Shown here: positions 35,922 to 48,550 of the stretch, piece by piece
How the letters are laid out: each line of letters begins with the position of its first letter
Numbering within the stretch: position 1 is the stretch's first letter
From: a bacterium
Lineage (GTDB): Bacteria; Krumholzibacteriota; Krumholzibacteriia; JACNKJ01
DNA length: 64,000 nucleotides
Direction of reading: 5' to 3'
NCBI GenBank assembly: GCA_024231955.1
Contig: JAAEPZ010000591.1
Location: forward strand, 98,453 to 162,452
Made by a program: the position numbers and the translations under genes
The notes under the pieces: model-generated
What the model saw: only the letters and a program-made list of their open reading frames with translations
What the model was told of the DNA's origin: nothing
Database searches by the model: none

Positions 35922-38900
35922 ATGGGCCTGCGTGAGTCCAAGCAGGGGATGATAAAGATGAGTTCCGTCCAGGATAGCCAAGCCCAGGATCGTTACCAGA
36001 TCAAACACCAGATTCGGGTGGTCACCGCCACCAGCCTGTTCGATGGCCACGATGCCGCCATCAACATCATGCGGCGCATGATCCAGGCGGGGGGAGCCGA
36101 GGTTATCCACCTCGGGCACAATCGATCCGTGGCCGAGATCGTTGAGGCGGCCATCGAGGAGGATGCTCAGGCAATCGCCGTCTCCTCCTATCAGGGTGGG
36201 CACAACGAGTTCTTCAAGTACATGCGCGACATGCTGGTCGAGAGGGGCGCGGAGCATATCCGTATCTTCGGCGGCGGCGGCGGCGTGATCCGCCCCGACG
36301 AGATCAAGGATCTGGAGGGGTACGGCATCGAGCGGCTCTACGACCCCGAGCACGGCCGCAAGATGGGGCTGACCGGCATCATCGACGATCTGCTCGAACG
36401 GAGCGACTACCTCACCGTTCAGGTGCCCGGCGGCGGCAAGGGCGAGCGCAAGGGCGCGGCCCTCCCCACTGTCGCCAAGGTGAGTGTCGACGATCATGCC
36501 GCGGTTGCGCGTCTGATCACGCTGGCGGAGATGGGGGGCGACGCCTGGGATCTGGTGGCTGACAAGATCGGCACGCTGGCCAAGCGGAACAACGCACCGG
36601 TGATAGGCGTCACCGGCACCGGCGGCAGCGGCAAGAGCTCGCTGCTCGACGAACTGGTCCGCCGTTTCCGCTTCAGTAACCCCGACAAGAGGGTGGCGCT
36701 GCTCTCCGCCGATCCATCAAAACGACGCACCGGCGGCGCATTGCTGGGCGACCGGATCCGGATGAACGCCATCGAGGGCGAGCAGGTGTACATGCGCTCG
36801 CTGGCGACGCGTGACAGCCGCACCGAGTTGCCCGTGACCATCGAGTCGGCCATCGCGGTGACCCGGGCGGCGGGCTTCGACATGATCTTCGTCGAGACCA
36901 GCGGCATCGGGCAGGGGGATACCGAGGTGGTGGACATCTCGAACGTCTCGCTCTACGTGATGACCTCGGAGTTCGGCGCTCCGACCCAACTCGAAAAGAT
37001 CGACATGATCGACTACGCCGACCTGATCGCGATCAACAAGTACGAGCGCAAGGGGAGCGAGGATGCGCTGCGCGATGTGCGGCGGCAGATGCGCCGTTCG
37101 CACGAGGACTTCAGCGTCGAGTTGGAGGAGCTGCCGATCTACGGCACCATCGCGAGCAAGTTCAATGACGAGGGCGTCAACGGTCTCTACGCCGGATTGA
37201 TTGATGTCATCGCCGCCAAATGCGGCGTCGAATTCAAGTGCGACATTCCGGTCGGCCGGATCTCCCGCACGTCCAGCAGCAAGTCGATCATACCGTCCGA
37301 GCGCACCCGCTACCTGGGTGAGATCGCCGACGCCGTGCGCGGCTACAAGCATCGCGCCCACGAGCGGGCCGAGGTGGCGCGCAAGCTGCAGCATCTGCGC
37401 ACCGCGCAGGCCGAATTGGAGAGCGCGGGGGCCGGCTCGACCCATCTGGTCGACCGGATCGAGGCGCTGGAGCGGGAGTTGGGCGACGAGTCGCTGCAGC
37501 TGCTCGCCGGTTGGGACGACCTGCACGTCGCCTACCGGGGGGATACGTTCAGCTACGTCGTTCGCGGCAAGGAGTTCAAGGTCGATCTCACGACCGAGAC
37601 GCTGTCGGGCACCAGAATCCCGAAGGTGATCGTGCCGCAACTGCACGACCACGGCGACCGCCTCGAGTATCTGATGCTGGAGAATGTCCCCGGGTGCTTC
37701 CCCTACACCGCCGGGGTGTTCCCCTTCAAGCGGCAGGGTGAGGATCCCAAGCGGCAGTTCGCGGGCGAGGGCGGTCCGGTGAAAACCAATACCCGTTTCC
37801 ACTACCTCTGCCGCGCCGACGACGCCAAGCGGCTCTCGACCGCTTTTGATTCGGTGACGCTCTACGGGCAGGATCCGGACGAACGCCCGGACATCCACGG
37901 CAAGGTGGGGGATTCCGGCGTCTCGATCTGTTCGCTGGAGGACATCAAGAAACTCTACGCCGGGTTCGACCTGTGCGCGCCGAGCACATCGGTGTCTATG
38001 ACGGTCAATGGCCCCGCGCCGATGATGCTGGCCTTCTTCCTCAACTCGGCCATCGATCAGCAGGTGGAGTTCTTCAAGGAGAGAGAGGGGCGCGAGCCCG
38101 CAGCCGCCGAGTATGAGGAGATTCGAGTTCGCACTCTGAGCACGGTGCGCGGCACGGTGCAGGCCGATATCCTGAAAGAGGATCAGGCGCAGAATACCTG
38201 CATCTTCTCGACCGATTTTGCGCTGCGGATGATGGGTGACATCCAGGAGTACTTCATCGCAAACAATGTGAAGAACTACTACTCGGTATCGATCTCCGGC
38301 TACCACATCGCCGAAGCTGGGGCCAACCCGATCACCCAGACTGCGCTGACGCTGGCCAACGGCTTCACCTTCGTCGAATACTATCTTTCGCGTGGGCTCA
38401 AGATCGACGACTTCGCGCCGAGTCTGTCCTATTTCTTCTCCAACGGCATGGATGCGGAGTATACCGTGATCGGACGTGTGGCGCGGCGAATCTGGTCCAT
38501 CGCCATGCGCGATCTCTACAGCGGCAACGACCGCAGTCAGAAGCTGAAGTATCACATCCAGACCTCCGGCCGCTCGCTGCATGCTCAGGAGATGGACTTC
38601 AACGATATCCGCACCACGCTGCAGGCGCTGCTGGCGTTCTACGACAACTGCAATTCGCTGCACACCAACTCCTACGACGAGGCGATCACCACACCCACCG
38701 AGGAGTCGGTGCGGCGGGCGATGGCGATTCAGATGATCACGCTGAAGGAGTTCGGTTTGACGAAGAACGAGCATCCCTGGCAGGGGTCGTACATCGCCGA
38801 AGAGCTGACCGAACTGGTGGAGGAGGCGATCCTGAGCGAGTTCGAGCGGCTGAGCGAGCGGGGCGGCGTGCTGGGCGCGATGGAGACGCAGTATCAGCGC

Positions 38901-39251
38901 GGCAAGATCCAGGACGAGTCGATGGTGTACGAGCATCGCAAGCATACGGGCGAATTGCCGATCATCGGGGTGAACACCTACCTCAAGGAGGGGGACGATG
39001 ATCTCATCGCCGCCGACATCGAATTGAGGCGGGCCACTCCCGAGGAGAAGGCCGAGCAGATCGCCAACCTGCGCGCCATGCAGAAGCGCAACACCGAGAA
39101 GACCGAGGAGACCCTGGGCAAGTTGAAGAGGGTGGCGCTCGAAGGCGGCAACATCTTCGAGCAGATGATGGAGACCGCGCGCTACGCATCGCTGGCCGAG
39201 ATCTCCAACGCCCTCTACGAGGTGGGCGGGCAGTATCGCCGCAACATGTAG
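35922..39251 (+). CDS. icmF: Fused isobutyryl-CoA mutase (B12-binding domain + MeaB-like G-protein + mutase substrate domain)
   Basis: 1109 aa. B12 motif [14 protein letters not shown]-loop [19 protein letters not shown]. Long methylmalonyl-CoA-mutase-like catalytic domain. Exact start among several N-terminal Met is uncertain. Confidence 0.85.
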
Positions 39252-39276
39252 ATCGCGGGCGATCGTTGATTATTGA

Positions 39277-39305
39277 CCCCGGCTCTTTCGAGTCGGGGTT
39301 TTTCT
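39277..39305 (+). terminator. Rho-independent terminator after icmF
   Basis: CCCCGGCTC-tttc-GAGTCGGGG followed by TTTTTCTTCG. Confidence 0.55.
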
Positions 39306-39587
39306 TCGCATCCGTTCTGGGAGATAACTGATTCATGAGCCTGGCACGTATTGCCGATTGTTGACATGGGCCATGTCGATATGGTCAAATTATCCGTCAT
39401 TACGCTATTGGCGACCGATTGATCCCTCCCGGTTAATCAATGATCCCAATAATGATGCCGCTGCGGACTCCAGGAATCGCGGTGCGGTTCTCGTGCTCGT
39501 ACCCGGTATTGATCTACCGCCGAACGATACAGCTCCATACATTCGCTCGGAGGTTTTCGAATATATGACTCAGACAGGAGCGCACCC

Positions 39588-40748
39588 GTGAAACCGACAC
39601 AAACGCCAGCACAGCAGCCCACCGATGATCTTGTGGACCGGATACCGGCGGGGATATACCAGGCCGACGAGCAGGGCTTCGTTTCCTATTGCAATCCCCG
39701 AGCGGCCTTGATATTGGGCTACAATCACCCGCGTGAACTGATCGGAAAGAAACTCAAGAGCTTATATGTGGATCCCAGTGACCGTGACAAATTGCTCGGC
39801 ATCATGGAGGTCGCCAAAGAGAAGGGATCGGAGAATTTCCGCATCAGGATGAAGAAGCCGTCGGGCGATGTCGTCGTGATCAGCGTCAATTCTCAGTACA
39901 GAGACTCGGGTGGAGCGGTCGAGGGCACATTTACCGATGTCACTGAACTGGCCAATTATGAAAGTCTGTTCGAGGATCTGCCGGCCGGCGTCTACCAGCT
40001 TGATGATGAACTGAACATCATCAAGTGTAATCCCGGATTCGAAAAGGTGTTCGGATATGAACCGGGGACACTCACCGGAGAGCCCGCCTCCAAGCTCTAT
40101 CTGGATGTTAACGATATGTACAGATTGAACGATGAACTCAAGGGGCGACTGGGATCCGGGCAGCAGGAGATCAGATCCCGGGTGATCGAGATGAAAAAAG
40201 AGAATGGGGACAGTGTCTGGATCTCATTGACGACCCATCTCAGACTGGATGGTAACGGGCAGGTGGTCGGCAGAGAGGGGACAGTCATTGAGACCACGCT
40301 GGAGGAGGCCAAAAAGAGGAAACAGATCTGTGGACATTGCTACGTTGCCGTGCCGTATCGACAGGAATTTCATGCGATCCATGACAAGATACTCAAACCG
40401 CTGGCTGCACAACACAAGTATATGGCTCAGAAAGCCGATTCCAAGATGGTTTTCACGGAATCCATGCGGACTAAAATGTACGGCATGATCCGCAACGCCG
40501 ACTTTGTGATCGGGGATATGACCGGCGACAATCCCAATGTGATGTACGAACTGGGGCTGGCGCACGCATTCGGCAAACCGGTGATTATGATCTCTCAGGA
40601 TAATGAAATCCCGGTCAACGTCAGGGAATATGAATTCATACACTACCAGGATACTCTTGCTGGTCTGGACCTGTTCAAGAAGAACCTGTCCCGGGCTATA
40701 CTGCATGTACATGAAGAGTTGATGGCGCAGGAGGCGAAGCGGGAGTGA
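39588..40748 (+). CDS. Tandem-PAS protein fused to a nucleoside 2-deoxyribosyltransferase-like / TIR-like Rossmann domain
   Basis: 386 aa, GTG start with CAGGAG RBS. Two PAS blocks (IPAGIYQADEQGFVSYCNPRAALILGY..., LPAGVYQLDDELNIIKCNPGFEKVFGY...). C-terminal ADFVIGDMTGDNPNVMYELGLAHAFGKPVIMI matches the NDT-like DxxG...E.G.A.A.GKPV signature. Confidence 0.65.
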   Translation: MKPTQTPAQQPTDDLVDRIPAGIYQADEQGFVSYCNPRAALILGYNHPRELIGKKLKSLYVDPSDRDKLLGIMEVAKEKGSENFRIRMKKPSGDVVVISVNSQYRDSGGAVEGTFTDVTELANYESLFEDLPAGVYQLDDELNIIKCNPGFEKVFGYEPGTLTGEPASKLYLDVNDMYRLNDELKGRLGSGQQEIRSRVIEMKKENGDSVWISLTTHLRLDGNGQVVGREGTVIETTLEEAKKRKQICGHCYVAVPYRQEFHAIHDKILKPLAAQHKYMAQKADSKMVFTESMRTKMYGMIRNADFVIGDMTGDNPNVMYELGLAHAFGKPVIMISQDNEIPVNVREYEFIHYQDTLAGLDLFKKNLSRAILHVHEELMAQEAKRE

Positions 40749-40803
40749 ACCCGAAGGCTCATCCGTTAGGTGGATCGCAATCGCATTCAACGGGAGCCGT
40801 ATT

Positions 40804-41190
40804 TTGGTGAATTCGGATAATTCACCTGTTGCCTTGCGAGTGATCTCCCCCGAAAGGTTGGTCCGGGACATGCGGAAGATACTCGTCGAAACCGAGCGGC
40901 TGCTGATCAGACGTCCCGAAGAGGGGGGTCGCCGCTGCTATGAGCGGCTCTTCTGCGACCCGGTCATGATGCGCCATCTCGGAAGCGTCTGGCCCTCCGA
41001 GCAGGTTCAGGAGGCGCTCGCCGAGTGGCGCGAGGTCTGGGGCAGCGACAACCGCTGGTACGGTACCCTCCTGCTGAAGGACACGCTGGAGCCGATCGGC
41101 GCTGCCGGGATACGAAACTCAGGTCCTGTGGGAGATGACCTCGGAGCAAAGTCAGCGGGGGCAGAACCGCGTTGTGAGGTCATCAGATGA
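40804..41190 (+). pseudogene. Truncated GNAT (RimJ/RimL-like) acetyltransferase fragment
   Basis: N-terminal LVETERLLIRRPEE and following block match the N-terminal half of ribosomal-protein-alanine acetyltransferases. The ORF ends after about 128 aa, short of the acetyl-CoA binding motifs, and runs into a low-GC non-coding stretch. Confidence 0.4.
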
Positions 41191-41519
41191 GAATGGAGAG
41201 ATAGAGAACTCATCCCAGCGGTGAACTTGTGGACTGTCTAACCTGATCGGCAACACACCTCTTCTCGCTATCCAATTTCTACTCAGTTCCCGGTGCGCGA
41301 GGTCTTTATGGGCAAAGATCCTCGGCACATTTAACTGATAACGAATTTTGCTCGAACTCGAACGGCTATAGCGGCCTATAGAGCTACTGACACACGTAAC
41401 CAAATCCCATATTGGGCCCGATTTGAGAATCCACAATCATTGGAGCAGAATCAACTAGCCATACTGCGCATGAAAATCGTAGACATAGTAGATTCGCCTA
41501 TATGGATTGAGAGGTTCTT

Positions 41520-42068
41520 ATGTCCAGGAGAATGATTGCCTGTGCCGCTCTGGCCGCCATCGGCATCGCGTTCGGTTGTGTCTCCCTGCTCGTATATCTG
41601 TCCAATGGTCATCCCCGACTCATCGCCCGCAAACTCAAATTGGGCGCAATCATCCTGTCGCTGACGGCCATGCTCGGCACCGCCTGCACCACGCCATCCC
41701 GGGTCACATGCTACATGCCTGCACCGCCGGATAGAGTTGCCGTCGATCCGGATGCCTTCGTCGACAACGTGATCTGGCTCGTTCTGGCGGAGAGCAATGA
41801 GATCGCGGGGACGATTCTGGATCGCGACTCGAGCGAGTTCTCCTTTTGCTTGATCGATGCTGAGGTGTCGGTGATTCAGGAGGGGGAGCTTGCGGCGCAA
41901 GATGGAGCAATGGACGAAGCGGAGGAGGAGTTCACGATCGTTATCGATCCCGGTACGCCGGTGGGTGGTTATGCCCTCCGTTTCTACTCCGTCCCAATGG
42001 CTGAAATCGTCATTGGCAATTACATCGCGGAGTTCCCGGTCGAGATCCGTGAGACGTCCGGAAGATGA
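41520..42068 (+). CDS. Hypothetical membrane-anchored protein, translationally coupled to the downstream radical SAM gene
   Basis: 182 aa. Two N-terminal hydrophobic helices and an acidic C-terminal half. ATGA overlap with the rSAM gene start. Confidence 0.5.
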   Translation: MSRRMIACAALAAIGIAFGCVSLLVYLSNGHPRLIARKLKLGAIILSLTAMLGTACTTPSRVTCYMPAPPDRVAVDPDAFVDNVIWLVLAESNEIAGTILDRDSSEFSFCLIDAEVSVIQEGELAAQDGAMDEAEEEFTIVIDPGTPVGGYALRFYSVPMAEIVIGNYIAEFPVEIRETSGR

Positions 42069-43108
42069 GCGTCAAAACCCGGCTTCCGGCGATCACCCTG
42101 GAACTGACCGGCGCGTGCAATCTTGCCTGCAGCTATTGCTACAATCACTGGCGTGTACCGGGGCAGGAGCTCCCGGACGGTCGAACTCCCGACTACGGGC
42201 AGGTGAGACGCACGGTCAAAGCCCTGTATCGGCAGGTCGATGTGCGGCAGATCGCAATGACGGGTGGCGAGCCCTTTCTCTTCGAACGTTTGCCGGAGAT
42301 CGCCTTGACCTGCAGGCTCAAGGGCTCCGCCGTGGCGGTGATCAGCAACGGCAGCATCGCCGACAGAGGGCGTTACGACGAATTGATCCGCATCGGCATC
42401 GACCTCTTTGAGTTCCCGATACACTCCGCCACCTCAGCGATTCACGATTCCCTGACGAATACCCCCGGCTCCTGGAGCAAGGCCCGCGAATCCCTGGAAC
42501 AGGTGATCGAGCTGGGTGCGCGCGGGGTGGCTGTGATCGTCCTCACGCGGCGGAATGTCGTCGGGTTGGGGGACACACTTCGCCTGTGTCGCGAATTGGG
42601 CGTGGATTCAGTCATGCTCAATCGTTTCAACATCGGAGGACGCGGCATCGCCGAAGCGCACAGGCTGCAGCCGGATGCCGCGCAACTGCACCAGTCTCTC
42701 CGTGTGGCCGATACCGCCGTCACGGAGCTCGGCCTGAAGATCAGTTCGAATGTCTGCACTCCCCATTGCCTTGTCGATCCGCATGACTATCCCCGCCTGG
42801 GTTTTTCGAACTGCGAAGTCGATGTGCGGCAAAGACCGCTGACCCTGAACTGGCGGGGCGACCTGCGCTTCTGCAACCATTCGCCTGTGATCATGGGCAA
42901 TATCCACCGGCAATCCCTGAACGAGATATTCGCCTCCGATTACGCCACGCTCTGGCGGCAGGCTCGCCCGGTATTTTGCGCGGACTGTCACCGCTTCGAA
43001 CGCTGCGCCGGCGGTTGCCGCGCTGCCGCCGAGCAACTGGGGGGGACGCCGGCCGACCCGGATCCGGTTCTGGAGATGTCGGGTACGAAAGCACCAGGAT
43101 CGGCGTAA
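42065..43108 (+). CDS. Radical SAM enzyme with C-terminal SPASM/twitch domain (anSME/peptide-maturase family)
   Basis: 347 aa. CNLACSYC (Cx3Cx2C) near the N-terminus. C-terminal CTPHC...C...CADCHRFERCAGGC auxiliary-cluster motifs. Confidence 0.8.
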   Translation: MSVKTRLPAITLELTGACNLACSYCYNHWRVPGQELPDGRTPDYGQVRRTVKALYRQVDVRQIAMTGGEPFLFERLPEIALTCRLKGSAVAVISNGSIADRGRYDELIRIGIDLFEFPIHSATSAIHDSLTNTPGSWSKARESLEQVIELGARGVAVIVLTRRNVVGLGDTLRLCRELGVDSVMLNRFNIGGRGIAEAHRLQPDAAQLHQSLRVADTAVTELGLKISSNVCTPHCLVDPHDYPRLGFSNCEVDVRQRPLTLNWRGDLRFCNHSPVIMGNIHRQSLNEIFASDYATLWRQARPVFCADCHRFERCAGGCRAAAEQLGGTPADPDPVLEMSGTKAPGSA

Positions 43109-45090: not shown

Positions 45091-46701
45091 TCAGTACATC
45101 GCCTTGATGGCGCTCCAACTCTTCGTCTCTGTACTGGTCTCGTTGCAGTTGGTGCTCCGTGCTCCGATGAGCAATCCGCAGGTTGAGTTGGTCTGGGCGC
45201 AGGGGGAATCGCTCTGTAGATAGACGTTGCCGTCTACGGCGTTCGTGCCGCAGAACTGCGGATCGGATGAGAAGTTGTTGCTTATGGTCGCCTGATCCTC
45301 GATTCCGCCCGCCCAGTTTCCGCCGCTGTTGTTCCAGATATCCGAACACGTGAATGTGATCTGGGAATCGCCGTCCTGGTAAACAGCGCCGTTTTGCCAG
45401 GTATACGCCACGATACAGCACACTAGGTTGAGCGATGCCGTGTGGTAGGTGCAGATCGATCCTCCGTCCTGCGCCGCGGTGTTGTAGGTGAAGGTGCAAT
45501 TCGCCAGAGTAGCCGTCGAGGTCCACTCGCTGTAGAAACCGCCGCCCCAGCCCGCTACGTTGTTGTGGAAGACGCAATTCTCGAACCTCGGATTCTGGTT
45601 GCTCCAGTTCGCCACCGCTCCCCCCTCGAAGGGGCAGTTGTTCCGCAGAAAGAGGCAACCGGTGACATCCGCATCGGCATCCACGTCGATGCCGAGTCCC
45701 GCGCCGCCTATCCAATCGATCCCCGTGGGTGTGAGGTTGTCGCGGAACTCGCAATTGGTGATGGTCGTGGTGCCGGTGCCGTCGCAGTAAACGCCGCCGC
45801 CGTAGTTGGAGATGTTGTTCAGGAAGTCGACACCGCTGAGAGTGGGGGAGGAGCTGTCCCAGATGTACACGCCGCCACCCAGTCCGTACTCGCCGAGCTG
45901 CGCCTCGTTGGCCGAGAACGTGCCCCCCGTAACGTTGGGGGAGGCGCCGTTGAGGCAGTACATCCCGCCGCCGAAACGGGCGATGTTCTGCCCGAAATTG
46001 CAGTTCGTGATATTTGGGTTCGATCCGTCGCAGACAAGTCCGCCGCCGGAACTGCCGGTGGTGTTGCCCGTGAAGGTCACATTGGTCAGTGCGGAGAGGC
46101 AGTCTTTGAAGACCAGCCCGCCGCCGTCCGTGACCGCGGAGTTGCCCGTGAACGTACACAGGTCGAAGCTCACCTCGCAGGCGTCTATATAGCAGCCGCC
46201 CCCCTGACCCTGATCGTCCGCCAGTTCCGACGTCGCCGAGTTGTTCGTGAAGATGCAACCTGTGAAATTGACGGAGCTGGTGGGCATCGTATAGACGGCG
46301 CCCCCTTTGTTGAAGGCCGAGTTGTCTTCGAAATGGCAGTTGGTGACCTGGAGGTTCCCGTCGACGAACAGGGCGCCGCCGAACGAGGTGTCGCCCCCGA
46401 TCAGGTGCAGGTTGTCCAGGTATCCCGAGCTGCCGGACTCATCGAAGATGATGGCGCGGCCTAGCCCCCGGGCATCGATCGTCACGTTGTCCGTGCCGCC
46501 CGGTGCGCCATTGAGGTGAACGCCCGGCGGCAGGGCCAGATTGTATTCGTTGTAGGTTCCCGAGGCGAGCAGAACGGTGTCGCCGTAGCTGGCTGCGGCC
46601 AGCCCCGCCGCCGTCGTCGGCTGTTCTGAGGGGACATGGATCGTGGTTGCGCAGGCGGTGGTGGCCAGCAGCATCAGACTGACGAGAATTCCTGTCTTCA
46701 T
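45091..46701 (-). CDS. Secreted right-handed parallel beta-helix repeat protein (paralog A)
   Basis: Start at ATG 46701 (MKTGILVSLMLLATTACA signal) with GGGAGG RBS. Numerous G-rich beta-helix repeats (GGG.Y / N.F..N). C-terminal tail CGLLIGARSTNCNETSTETKSWSAIKAMY is shared with the paralog. Confidence 0.7.
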   Translation of the reverse strand: MKTGILVSLMLLATTACATTIHVPSEQPTTAAGLAAASYGDTVLLASGTYNEYNLALPPGVHLNGAPGGTDNVTIDARGLGRAIIFDESGSSGYLDNLHLIGGDTSFGGALFVDGNLQVTNCHFEDNSAFNKGGAVYTMPTSSVNFTGCIFTNNSATSELADDQGQGGGCYIDACEVSFDLCTFTGNSAVTDGGGLVFKDCLSALTNVTFTGNTTGSSGGGLVCDGSNPNITNCNFGQNIARFGGGMYCLNGASPNVTGGTFSANEAQLGEYGLGGGVYIWDSSSPTLSGVDFLNNISNYGGGVYCDGTGTTTITNCEFRDNLTPTGIDWIGGAGLGIDVDADADVTGCLFLRNNCPFEGGAVANWSNQNPRFENCVFHNNVAGWGGGFYSEWTSTATLANCTFTYNTAAQDGGSICTYHTASLNLVCCIVAYTWQNGAVYQDGDSQITFTCSDIWNNSGGNWAGGIEDQATISNNFSSDPQFCGTNAVDGNVYLQSDSPCAQTNSTCGLLIGARSTNCNETSTETKSWSAIKAMY

Positions 46702-46858
46702 CTCGACTTCCTCCCGGTGGGTGTATATCACAAATGTAGCATGTTTGGCTTGTGCAGGGGAAGGGGGGGAGTCTGTAACCACAGTTTATCTGGGATATCG
46801 ATAAAGAAAGAGAGGGTGTCCGAGCCCCCCTCTCTCAATGCGTGATATCGAATTCGGA

Positions 46859-48550
46859 TCAGTACATCGCCTTGACCGCACTCCAGCTTGTCGCCTCGGT
46901 GCTGGTCTCATTACAATTGATGCCCAATGCGCCGACTATCTGACTGCATCCGGCCACAGCCGCCGTGCAGGGCGAGTCGCTCTGCAAATAGAAATTGGTC
47001 GTGCCGGCAACGCCGCAGAACTGGGGGTTCGCGGAGAAGTTGTCGTCGGTTGTCGCCTGTGATTCGATTCCGTCGACCCAATCGCCGCCCGCATTGTTCC
47101 AGAGGTCGCAGCAGACCAGATTGATCGTCGAATCCGATTCCCGATGGACCGCGCTGCCGGCTCCGCTGTCGCAGATGATGCTCCGATTCAGGTCGACGGC
47201 GGCCCCGGTCCAGACGCTGATGCCGGCGCCGTCGGCGGCGTCCGTCACCTCGTTGCGCACCATCGTGCAACTGGTGAAGACTGCGGTGGAGTTGTTCTCA
47301 CCGTAATACGCCCCACCCCATCTCCCCGTGTTGTCATGGAAAATGCAGCTGGTGAATTCGGGGGTGCCGGTGCTCCAGTTGCCGATCGCTCCACCCATAT
47401 AGGTGGTGGAGTTGCTCTTGAAGGTGCAGGCGGTCGCCGTTAAATGTGCCGTACCCATGATGCAGGCGGCGCCGCCGCCCTGCGCTGTCTCGGAGCTTGC
47501 CGACTGGTTGCTTTCGAAACGGCAGTTGTCGAAGTGCGGTGTGCTCCCTGCGTTGCTGCAGACGGCGCCGCCCCAGACTGCCTGATTGGTGATGAAACGG
47601 ACATCCTCGACCGTAGCGGAGGCCGTATCCTCCAGATAGAGTCCACCTCCGTAGCCGTAGCTGCCCGCAGCGGCCGTGTTGCTCGACCAGGTGCCGCCGG
47701 TGATCGTCGGGGCGCTGCTGCCCCCGCCACTGTGTTCAACGGACATCGCCCCGCCCCAGTCGGCCGTGTTGAGCGCAAAGCCGCAATCGGTGATGGTCGG
47801 GCTGGAGTTGTAGCACATCAACCCGCCGCCGCCGTCGTTGGCGGCGTTGCCTGTGAAGTTGGTATGGTCCAATGTGGAGACCACCGCATCCAGAAGATAG
47901 ACTCCGCCGCCGCTGTAGACCGCATTATTGTCCGAGAATGTACAGAGTGACAGACCGAGGTTGACGGCCTCGGCATAGATGCCGCCGCCGTTGGTGTTCG
48001 TGGTGTTGCCGGTGAATGAGCAGCCATTGAAAACGGGGGAACCACCCGTTGCGATATAAACCCCGCCACCGGACCAGCCATTGTTCTCCGTGAACTCGCA
48101 GCCGGTGAAGGTCGGGTCGGCCGACGAGTCAAGAGCCAACCCGCCGCCGTGAGTCGACGCCTGATTGCCGATGAGGACACACAGCGAGACCTCGATGGGG
48201 GAGTTGGTCAGGTACATGCCCCCCCCTTCTGAGGTGGAGCCGCCGGTCAGAGTCAGGCCGAGGATACTTGTGGAACCGGCCAGGTCGCTGCCATGGATGC
48301 ACCTGCCTTGACCGTTGGCGTCGATGGTTACATCCTGTGCGTCACCGGTGGCGCTCCGGAGGCAAACGCCCGACTTCATCTCCAGATCGTGTTCGGTGTA
48401 ATTGCCGGTGGAGATGCTGACCGTATCGCCACTGACGGCGACTGTCAGCGCCGCCGCGATTGTCGGTTGCTCATCCGGCACATTGATCGTGGCTGCGCTG
48501 CCGACGGAGGCCAGCAGAAGTACGAGACCGCAGAATATCATACTCTTCAT
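46859..48550 (-). CDS. Secreted right-handed parallel beta-helix repeat protein (paralog B)
   Basis: 563 aa. Signal MKSMIFCGLVLLLASVGSA, AAGGAAGG RBS. Same repeat architecture and C-terminal CSQIVGALGINCNETSTEATSWSAVKAMY tail. Confidence 0.7.
   Translation of the reverse strand: MKSMIFCGLVLLLASVGSAATINVPDEQPTIAAALTVAVSGDTVSISTGNYTEHDLEMKSGVCLRSATGDAQDVTIDANGQGRCIHGSDLAGSTSILGLTLTGGSTSEGGGMYLTNSPIEVSLCVLIGNQASTHGGGLALDSSADPTFTGCEFTENNGWSGGGVYIATGGSPVFNGCSFTGNTTNTNGGGIYAEAVNLGLSLCTFSDNNAVYSGGGVYLLDAVVSTLDHTNFTGNAANDGGGGLMCYNSSPTITDCGFALNTADWGGAMSVEHSGGGSSAPTITGGTWSSNTAAAGSYGYGGGLYLEDTASATVEDVRFITNQAVWGGAVCSNAGSTPHFDNCRFESNQSASSETAQGGGAACIMGTAHLTATACTFKSNSTTYMGGAIGNWSTGTPEFTSCIFHDNTGRWGGAYYGENNSTAVFTSCTMVRNEVTDAADGAGISVWTGAAVDLNRSIICDSGAGSAVHRESDSTINLVCCDLWNNAGGDWVDGIESQATTDDNFSANPQFCGVAGTTNFYLQSDSPCTAAVAGCSQIVGALGINCNETSTEATSWSAVKAMY

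Follow-up and report, generated by a model that had tools for sequence, protein, structure and literature searches.

The TIR-DrHyd-SLOG clade has three branches, one of which the Aravind group has named DrHyd, and members of this branch are predicted to cleave N-glycosidic bonds, either as effectors or as generators of signals (PMC7159879; PMC9503650). Comparative genomics has already described the superfamily, with its promiscuous fusions and the chemistry predicted for it, and the definition of DrHyd includes a three-layer alpha/beta sandwich with a five-stranded sheet (PMC9503650). The nucleoside 2'-deoxyribosyltransferases (NDTs) and (deoxy)nucleoside monophosphate ((d)NMP) N-glycosidases of family PF05014 (LlNDT, TbPDT, CtNDT, DNPH1/Rcl, MilB/BcmB) are stand-alone enzymes of 150 amino acids (aa). 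NDT is an obligate dimer, in which an Asn of the NLM motif of the other monomer, with an Asp six residues ahead of the catalytic Glu, binds the sugar O5', and Tyr versus Phe at NDT position 7 goes with deoxyribo versus ribo substrates (PMC7308715). Experimentally tested effectors include the REC-PNP protein of Detocs, an ATP nucleosidase and gated N-glycosidase (10.1101/2023.01.24.525353), and the NDT-like effector of Retron-Eco1, with catalytic residue E106 (10.1101/2023.08.16.553469). Here we describe a gene in a 64,000-nucleotide (64-kb) stretch of contig JAAEPZ010000591.1 (assembly GCA_024231955.1, a bacterium of the Krumholzibacteriota), hereafter the window, whose product joins two PAS domains to a C-terminal DrHyd domain. 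Whether this protein is a PAS-regulated N-glycosidase acting on a nucleotide we regard as an evenly balanced proposition; its novelty relative to the described members lies in a PAS pair as input, in a stand-alone gene within a housekeeping-type context and in having lost one side of the active site that partner chains are predicted to share.

The deposited protein (P0001, 'MAG: PAS domain S-box protein [bacterium]') is identical to the translation and has the same start. A first-pass annotation of the DNA had called this open reading frame (ORF), with a dedicated GTG start and ribosome-binding site, two PAS domains and a C-terminal motif, ADFVIGDMTGDNPNVMYELGLAHAFGKPVIMISQD; all of these are borne out, the motif lying at aa 304-338. 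The PAS domains are each found by two profiles, in two stretches of the protein: PF00989 of Pfam (E 7.5e-21, 74.7 bits, cut-off 22.6) and TIGR00229 of NCBIfam (E 1.6e-23, 83.2 bits, cut-off 22.9). The features of the gene, in window coordinates and with identities to a full-length ortholog (P0002), are as follows.

39275 to 39307, forward strand: stem-loop and T-run, best read as the intrinsic terminator of the upstream icmF-like gene and as the 5' boundary of the PAS gene's transcription unit
39576 to 39580, forward strand: Shine-Dalgarno sequence AGGAG, 7 nucleotides (nt) 5' of the GTG, read from the sequence
39588 to 40748, forward strand: PAS-PAS-DrHyd coding sequence, complete with stop codon, 386 aa, GTG start
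39630 to 39950, forward strand: PAS domain 1, aa 15-121 by profiles (strands and helices of the model at aa 22-117), 61% identity to P0002
39954 to 40298, forward strand: PAS domain 2, aa 123-237 by profiles (model span aa 133-236), 64% identity to P0002
40299 to 40331, forward strand: linker, aa 238-248, 11 residues with one short helix in the models
40332 to 40655, forward strand: DrHyd/NDT-like Rossmannoid core, aa 249-356, by profiles, model and Foldseek, 40% identity to P0002
40515 to 40577, forward strand: conserved segment with the catalytic-type Glu321 (codon 40548-40550), with N317, V318, Y320, E321 and L322 unchanged throughout a 21-sequence alignment of the domain (A1) and E321 corresponding to the Glu of DNPH1/Rcl
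40611 to 40622, forward strand: P342-V343-N344-V345, standing where the family has P-F-D-L and NDTs have the 'NLM' motif (Asn344 codon 40617-40619)
40656 to 40745, forward strand: long C-terminal helix, aa 357-386, from the models, where conservation is lowest (29% identity to P0002)

Upstream of the gene there is a single inverted repeat (39275-39300), with a stem of 11 bp, 7 of them G-C, and a 4-nt loop. It had been assigned to the PAS gene as an upstream repeat of its own, an assignment that we do not retain: since the repeat is followed by TTTTCTT and begins 24 nt past the icmF-like stop (ORF end 39251), 288 nt ahead of the GTG, it is best read as the neighbor's intrinsic terminator and not as an operator of the PAS-DrHyd gene. 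This placement of a terminator ahead of the gene in turn supports the view that it is transcribed on its own, as had been proposed. The models have no long signaling helix between the second PAS domain and the DrHyd domain; the full-length model (pLDDT 77.8, pTM 0.54) agrees on the domain boundaries. Among the cofactor and ligand signatures of PAS domains (LOV, haem, PYP) there is a weak match to photoactive yellow protein alone (E 0.0037, far under the cut-off). The best explanation of the protein as a whole is a soluble, self-contained 'one-component' sensor-effector.

Judged by sequence, the C-terminal domain is of the NDT/DrHyd type, and it is TIR-like in fold alone. It scores 162 bits against the profile of its own family, and it matches PF05014 (Nuc_deoxyrib_tr) over aa 268-340 with 30.3 bits against a gathering score of 28.8, a marginal and partial match that covers profile positions 31-101 of 117. 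No TIR profile (PF01582, PF13676, PF08937) or SLOG/LOG profile of Pfam matches the protein even at E ≤ 10, and membership of the TIR or SLOG families was rejected on that ground; PDLC00733, a PADLOC model of a CBASS effector labeled TIR, is matched weakly (E 3.7e-5, 65 residues, in the C-terminal part of the model). The AlphaFold model of the domain, built on alignment A1, has a pLDDT of 90.9 and shows an alpha/beta sandwich of five strands that ends with a long helix (strands b1 249-254, b2 278-281, b3 306-310, b4 332-336 and b5 350-352), that is, it has the five strands and flanking helices of the DrHyd sandwich. The strand-3 hallmark of DrHyd is also present, since strand 3 (FVIGD, aa 306-310) is directly followed by an invariant N-P-N-V-x-Y-E-L-G; N315, P316, N317, V318, Y320, E321, G323 and H326, all after this strand, are invariant or near-invariant in the family. 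In Foldseek comparisons with the PDB, NDTs rank at the top (2a0k and the 8pq* series, E about 1e-5), followed by TIR domains of SPARTA and TIR-STING (E about 1e-4, TM-score 0.6-0.65) and then by DNPH1 and the CMP N-glycosidase BcmB, and the best matches among viral models are a 'CMP/hydroxymethyl-CMP hydrolase', a Cap12/Pycsar-type TIR protein and NDTs. The first-pass assignment to NDT/SLOG/TIR-like folds thus holds for the NDT/TIR-like fold class, because PF05014 is matched above its gathering score and the Foldseek and viral structural matches agree, and it does not extend to the TIR and SLOG families proper, PF08937 and PF13676 giving nothing at E ≤ 10. Within the clade the domain is a member of the DrHyd (NDT/DNPH1-like) branch.

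With the PF05014 enzymes the domain has in common the fold, the position of the Glu nucleophile in the helix after strand 3, the register of beta-1 (aromatic-x3-Pro-aromatic) and, putatively, a residue some 23-28 positions after the Glu that would be given to the partner subunit as it is in NDTs (PMC7308715). Sequence searches against the PDB, and the family profile, place Glu321 opposite the nucleophilic Glu in DNPH1/Rcl (Y-E-L-G) and in T. brucei NDT (F-E-V-G). The differences are that the domain is fused to a PAS pair and has no salvage context, that Asn315 replaces the Asp six residues ahead of the Glu and Lys296 probably the helix Asp, and that the profile match is the marginal one just described.

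The family to which the domain belongs carries the signature F-V-I-M-P-F ... R-A-D ... D ... A-D-x-T-G-x-N-P-N-V-x-Y-E-L-G-x-A-H ... P-F-D-L ... R ... Y and is very large, the domain profile retrieving, from clusters at 50% identity, 41,435 representatives with E ≤ 1e-3, of which 29,092 have E ≤ 1e-10. All homologs other than P0002 match our protein in the C-terminal domain only. Among the top profile matches there are 94 multidomain proteins, to which the following partner counts apply.

REC: 27 of 94, the commonest partner
GAF: 5 of 94
EAD7: 4 of 94
EAD8: 3 of 94
CHAT: 3 of 94
TIR_2: 3 of 94
PNP_UDP_1: 3 of 94
SIR2, trypsin, Roc-COR and WD40: 1 each
SpoIIE: seen in P0044

As the REC fusions indicate, the DrHyd domain is the C-terminal output of many response regulators. 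The earlier remark that this architecture is not a standard signaling output is therefore right in that DrHyd is no textbook output, and has to be qualified in that the same domain ends so many response regulators, besides proteins with GAF domains, and in that the superfamily has already been described computationally (PMC7159879, PMC9503650). Other members of the family match PDLC00733 strongly, and a SLOG-fused member (P0030), which lies among TIR_2, DUF4062 and ThsB-TIR genes, covers most of that model. A coiled-coil form occurs within a RepSA/integrase element of a Microbacterium, and the domain is found on 57 plasmids and in 51 temperate phages, nearly always annotated as 'hypothetical protein'. 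Its size, its fusions, the PDLC00733 matches and its occurrence in TIR-rich islands, integrative elements, plasmids and prophages give the family the appearance of an enzymatic output. Our protein is of the same domain class as the described DrHyd superfamily, with the same predicted N-glycosidic cleavage, and its family has the superfamily's partners (EADs, TIR, SLOG, the caspase-like CHAT, PNP); it is unlike the described members in its PAS-PAS partner, its stand-alone gene, its housekeeping neighborhood and the degenerate trans (P-F-D) side of its site.

Three loci outside the window illustrate the contexts in which the family is found. In Staphylococcus phage SA13 (L006, 2992-3642) a 216-aa DrHyd gene, also present in many S. 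aureus phietaviruses, is the sole gene on its strand within the replication module and is moron-like. On the mobilisable 9.8-kb Pseudomonas plasmid pA7J1 (L007, 2896-4542) a DrHyd-TPR gene, whose product is annotated as a 'TRAFs-binding domain-containing protein', is directly followed by the gene of a 134-aa TIR-domain protein, and the cassette, which adjoins a RelB/YafQ toxin-antitoxin pair, is probably a small conflict system. The third (L002, 793-5433) is a three-gene operon of a 1132-aa multi-GAF protein with a weak HATPase_c match (E 8e-4), a 130-aa ORF and a REC-DrHyd gene (P0003). A Detocs-like reading of this operon was rejected, the kinase match being weak, the 130-aa ORF having no Pfam match and no PADLOC Detocs model being matched, and it is kept as an analogy.

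The organization of the active site in this family is best seen in relatives with two DrHyd domains. The residue analysis covers 364 domains from 306 proteins aligned to the family profile, a sample in which the best-scoring members are over-represented. The equivalents of Glu321 and Asp344 are both present in 243 of 248 single-domain proteins; the Glu is present in 247, four lack the Asp (two of these being the PAS-linked pair), and one stand-alone domain has the Asp without the Glu. The tandem proteins, typically REC-DrHyd-DrHyd', present a different picture: 18 of the 58 have Glu and Asp in each copy, and in 32 the losses are complementary, one copy having the Glu without the Asp and the other the Asp without the Glu. 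In the response regulators of this type (P0048, P0052, P0054-P0057, P0060, P0066-P0073 and others, all outside the window), copy 1 keeps Glu321 and Asn317 and loses the Asp of P-F-D, whereas in copy 2 Asn317 has become Asp, the Glu is lost, usually to Leu, and the Asp is kept. More widely in the Asp-donor copies the Glu-side motif decays (N315 to D, N317 to D, E321 to L, with F252 and F257 lost). The 32 complementary pairs sort the conserved positions (query numbering, the query being our protein) into three classes.

Glu-side positions: F252, V253, M255, F257, K270, R282, A283, D284, I293, D296, N315, N317, E321, A327, R349
Asp-side positions: F343, D344
Structural positions, kept in both copies: Y265, A309, D310, P316, V318, G323, A325, K330, P342, L345, Y353

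Because Glu and Asp are lost in this complementary way, the simplest explanation is that Glu321 and Asp344 would form one active site built across a dimer or pseudo-dimer, in agreement with the obligate dimers of NDTs (PMC7308715), and the tandem pattern supports a trans role for position 344. The spacing of the trans residue is comparable to that of the NDT-type enzymes, being Glu+23 in our protein, Glu+28 in AvNRT and Glu+25 in LlNDT. A description of complementary degeneration in tandem DrHyd relatives was not found in the literature, and the pattern is, as far as could be found, undescribed.

Set against this scheme, the active site of the PAS-PAS-DrHyd protein appears atypical for its family, with one side in good order and the other changed. 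On the Glu side it keeps V253, K270, A283, D284, N315, N317, E321 and A327, along with P256 and H326 of an intermediate class, and has conservative changes at five positions (F252Y, M255V, F257Y, R282K, I293M). N315, N317, Y320 and E321 are kept in P0002 as well, and the whole segment N-x-N-V-M-Y-E-L-G-L-A is intact in both PAS-linked proteins, at 40% identity over the domain. The remaining Glu-side changes are D296K and R349E, and the same swap is seen in P0002. Position 296, where 84% of single-domain members have Asp, is the likely counterpart of the helix Asp ahead of strand 3 (Asp72 of LlNDT, Asp69 of rat Rcl), although HMMER places Asp69 of Rcl one residue later. Since every row with an acid at 349 has a base at 296 (4 rows of 4, from at most 2-3 independent lineages), we read K296 and E349 as a probable charge-swapped, compensated pair. 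On the Asp side, the P-F-D motif after strand 4 is P-V-N in our protein and P-S-T in P0002. In its profile scores the domain resembles single-domain members (111 bits) and Glu-donor copies (104 bits), and not Asp-donor copies (74 bits).

Two residues resemble those of NDTs more closely than the family does. Tyr252, four residues ahead of the beta-1 Pro (Y252-V-A-V-P256), stands at the NDT Tyr7 position, where Phe is found in 98% of single-domain members and 88% of all aligned domains, and where the Tyr of K-I-Y-I-A-G-P in 2a0k is the counterpart of the family Phe; Asn344 is in the register of the Asn of the NDT NLM motif, the motif reading N-V-R in our protein. P0002 has Phe and Thr at these positions, so that neither feature is shared by the two orthologs. 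The Asp six residues ahead of the Glu (Asp92 of LlNDT, Asp79 of AvNRT) is Asn315 in our protein, as is usual for the family (Asn 84%, Asp 10%).

The PAS-PAS-DrHyd fusion was found in two proteins, P0001 and its ortholog P0002, by a word-indexed search of 5.8 billion sequences and searches of two contig collections (genome and metagenome). P0002 is full-length and 52% identical to our protein. No further ortholog was found in the genome or metagenome contigs with the protein or the two-sequence alignment as queries, and a PAS hidden Markov model run over the 306 family proteins, a sample skewed to best-scoring members, finds these two only. The profile search of the large collection lists 120 proteins, mostly single-domain, so that the rarity of PAS fusions is a statement on the proteins searched rather than on the 41,435 clusters as a whole. 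The literature search gave no account of PAS or REC fusions of the DrHyd clade, the original superfamily paper of 2015 being outside its reach. That an intact, full-length ortholog of 52% identity persists in a different context indicates purifying selection.

The scheme that we propose builds on the gene, its domains and fold, its family membership, the composite-site logic of the family and the residues that the protein keeps, and adds by inference a catalytic activity, a substrate, a mechanism of gating by the PAS pair and a physiological role. The PAS pair would sense a cytoplasmic cue, and sensing would change the packing of two C-terminal DrHyd domains against each other; the changed packing would switch on the Glu321 pocket (Y252, P256, Y257, D284, N315, N317, Y320, E321, H326), into which Asn344 would reach from the partner chain as in NDT dimers. 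The pocket would then break the base-sugar (N-glycosidic) linkage in a nucleotide such as NAD+, a (d)NMP or a (deoxy)nucleoside triphosphate ((d)NTP), and the outcome would be either nucleotide depletion or production of a small-molecule signal. The role suggested in the first-pass annotation, a ligand-regulated nucleotide-modifying or nucleotide-sensing effector, seems reasonable in this light. The scheme resembles that of Detocs DtcC, in which an input domain gates N-glycosidic cleavage of a nucleotide (10.1101/2023.01.24.525353), and among the relatives of our protein REC-DrHyd is the commonest multidomain form, one of them (P0003) following a GAF-type kinase and a 130-aa ORF. The likeness ends there, for Detocs is a phosphorelay operon of three genes (DtcA kinase, DtcB receiver, DtcC receiver-effector) whose effector fold is PNP and not DrHyd and whose input is phosphotransfer and not PAS, and our protein lacks a REC domain, has neither a kinase nor a buffer gene in its vicinity and matches no PADLOC Detocs model. 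The Retron-Eco1 (Ec86) effector, an NDT-like dimer with catalytic Glu E106, is likewise a regulated toxic effector (10.1101/2023.08.16.553469), but one regulated by msDNA and reverse transcriptase, and PADLOC gives no sequence match to it at E ≤ 10. To the TIR NADases (TIR-STING/Cap12, SPARTA TIR-APAZ) the likeness is at the level of fold, with no Pfam TIR match, and to CBASS it consists of the PDLC00733 match, weak here and strong in other family members, with no adjacent CD-NTase.

Several observations weigh against this scheme. The trans pair F343-D344 is lost in both PAS-linked proteins (V-N and S-T), Asp296, the probable counterpart of NDT Asp72 and DNPH1 Asp69, is Lys and is paired with the change of R349 to Glu, and P0002 also lacks His326. 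The core is 40% identical between the orthologs and the PAS domains 61-64%, which suggests relaxed or shifted constraint on the output half. The housekeeping neighbors give no functional hint and are not conserved between the two loci, and no published assay of a member of this particular DrHyd clade was found in the literature search. These same losses, together with the faster divergence of the output half than of the sensor half, are what would be expected if the C-terminal domain were a non-catalytic module for nucleotide binding or oligomerization and the protein a PAS sensor or adaptor that signals through protein contacts, and inactive versions within the TIR-DrHyd-SLOG clade do bind nucleotides as sensors (PMC9503650). 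We consider this unlikely. In the Asp-donor tandem copies, where catalysis has clearly been lost, the whole Glu-side motif has decayed, whereas in both PAS-linked proteins it is fully intact despite the low identity of the domain, and the restriction of the acid at 349 to rows with a base at 296 has the look of a compensated pair rather than of decay. It is because the Glu-side motif is intact here and decayed there that an active, if unusual, enzyme is favored.

An intact Glu side with a lost Asp side is also the exact pattern of the Glu-donor copy in the 32 tandem proteins, and our protein might accordingly be the Glu-donor half of a heteromer, a DrHyd protein encoded elsewhere supplying the P-F-D side as in REC-DrHyd-DrHyd'; one Asp-only stand-alone domain is present among the 248 single-domain proteins. 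This we hold to be rather improbable, given that no second DrHyd-like ORF is found in the 64-kb window or on the contig of P0002 (hmmsearch --max, E ≤ 10), that the two loci have no conserved neighbor and that our protein scores no better against Glu-donor copies than against ordinary single domains. Still less probable is a genuine nucleoside 2'-deoxyribosyltransferase or dNMP N-hydrolase working in deoxynucleoside salvage under PAS control. The PF05014 score above gathering and the deoxyribose-type residues Tyr252, at the NDT Tyr7 position, and Asn344, in NLM register (PMC7308715), speak for it; the partial and marginal nature of that match, Asn315 in place of Asp and Lys296 probably in place of the helix Asp, and the Phe and Thr of P0002 at the two 'NDT-like' positions speak against it, and the nearest relatives are effector and output modules of REC and conflict-system proteins and not salvage enzymes. 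That the gene is a recent acquisition in decay, with no current function, is very hard to credit. Its G+C fraction (GC) is 0.51-0.54 (window 39400-40900) as compared with 0.58-0.67 in the flanks, a truncated GNAT remnant lies immediately downstream and the conserved trans motif of the family is lost; the frame of 386 codons is nonetheless intact behind a good ribosome-binding site, and the full-length ortholog, with its PAS domains 61-64% identical, bespeaks purifying selection. The most novel possibility, that the protein is a non-defense one-component signaling enzyme whose output would be a nucleotide-derived small molecule (a released base, an ADP-ribose-like or a ribose-phosphate product), seems to us unlikely and is offered tentatively.

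The neighborhood of the gene begins upstream with an aconitase gene, a YbjQ-like gene and the IcmF-type fused mutase, and continues downstream with the truncated GNAT, a 182-aa ORF, a radical SAM/SPASM gene and an NmrA-like gene. Those for which coordinates are of use here, and two ORFs farther downstream, are listed below.

35922 to 39251, forward strand: IcmF-type fusion of B12-binding, MeaB GTPase and methylmalonyl-CoA-mutase domains, 1109 aa
40804 to 41190, forward strand: N-terminal half only of a GNAT acetyltransferase (PF13302 positions 1-77 of 138, under the cut-off)
41190 to 41520: about 330 nt after the GNAT ORF, non-coding in appearance
41520 to 42068, forward strand: 182-aa ORF, hydrophobic at its N-terminus and without a Pfam match, overlapping the start of the next gene by 4 nt
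42065 to 43108, forward strand: radical SAM/SPASM gene
45091 to 46782, reverse strand: 563-aa ORF with Chlamydia-PMP-type repeats
46859 to 48550, reverse strand: adjacent ORF, also of 563 aa

The GNAT ORF is not continued in any reading frame and probably represents what is left of a truncated gene. The 182-aa ORF and the radical SAM/SPASM gene could be a pair of substrate or partner and maturase, and the product of the ORF with PMP-type repeats is probably a surface or autotransporter-like protein. The low GC of the PAS-DrHyd gene is compatible with horizontal acquisition. The contig of P0002 is 2.2 kb long with a GC of 0.53; there a HicB-like antitoxin and a Uma2-like fragment precede the ortholog and an aldolase-type gene follows it, and none of these is common to the two loci. 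No kinase or receiver gene is present among the ten neighboring ORFs of our gene and no CD-NTase or other CBASS gene among its neighbors, and an Rfam scan of the window gave no match. As the neighbors differ between the loci and neither has a second DrHyd ORF, the PAS-DrHyd gene is a self-contained unit without a conserved partner nearby.

With at least 29,000 clusters (50% identity, E ≤ 1e-10), the DrHyd module is among the largest protein families for which no measured chemistry is known, and it supplies the effector part of response regulators and conflict-system proteins as well as of plasmid cassettes and prophage morons. A small, soluble, single-gene version that is gated by PAS domains would be a convenient handle on the nucleotide chemistry of DrHyd and on how an input domain switches it. 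The complementary loss of Glu and Asp in tandem relatives suggests activation by a dimerization that completes a shared site. If the protein is indeed a signaling enzyme, it would be the PAS-gated counterpart of a very large, unrecognized class of response regulators (REC-DrHyd and REC-DrHyd-DrHyd'), in which a composite site, Glu with the partner's Asp or Asn, would form only when the input domain joins two DrHyd domains; and if the output is a signaling molecule rather than the depletion of nucleotides, it would be a new kind of output for bacterial one- and two-component signaling.

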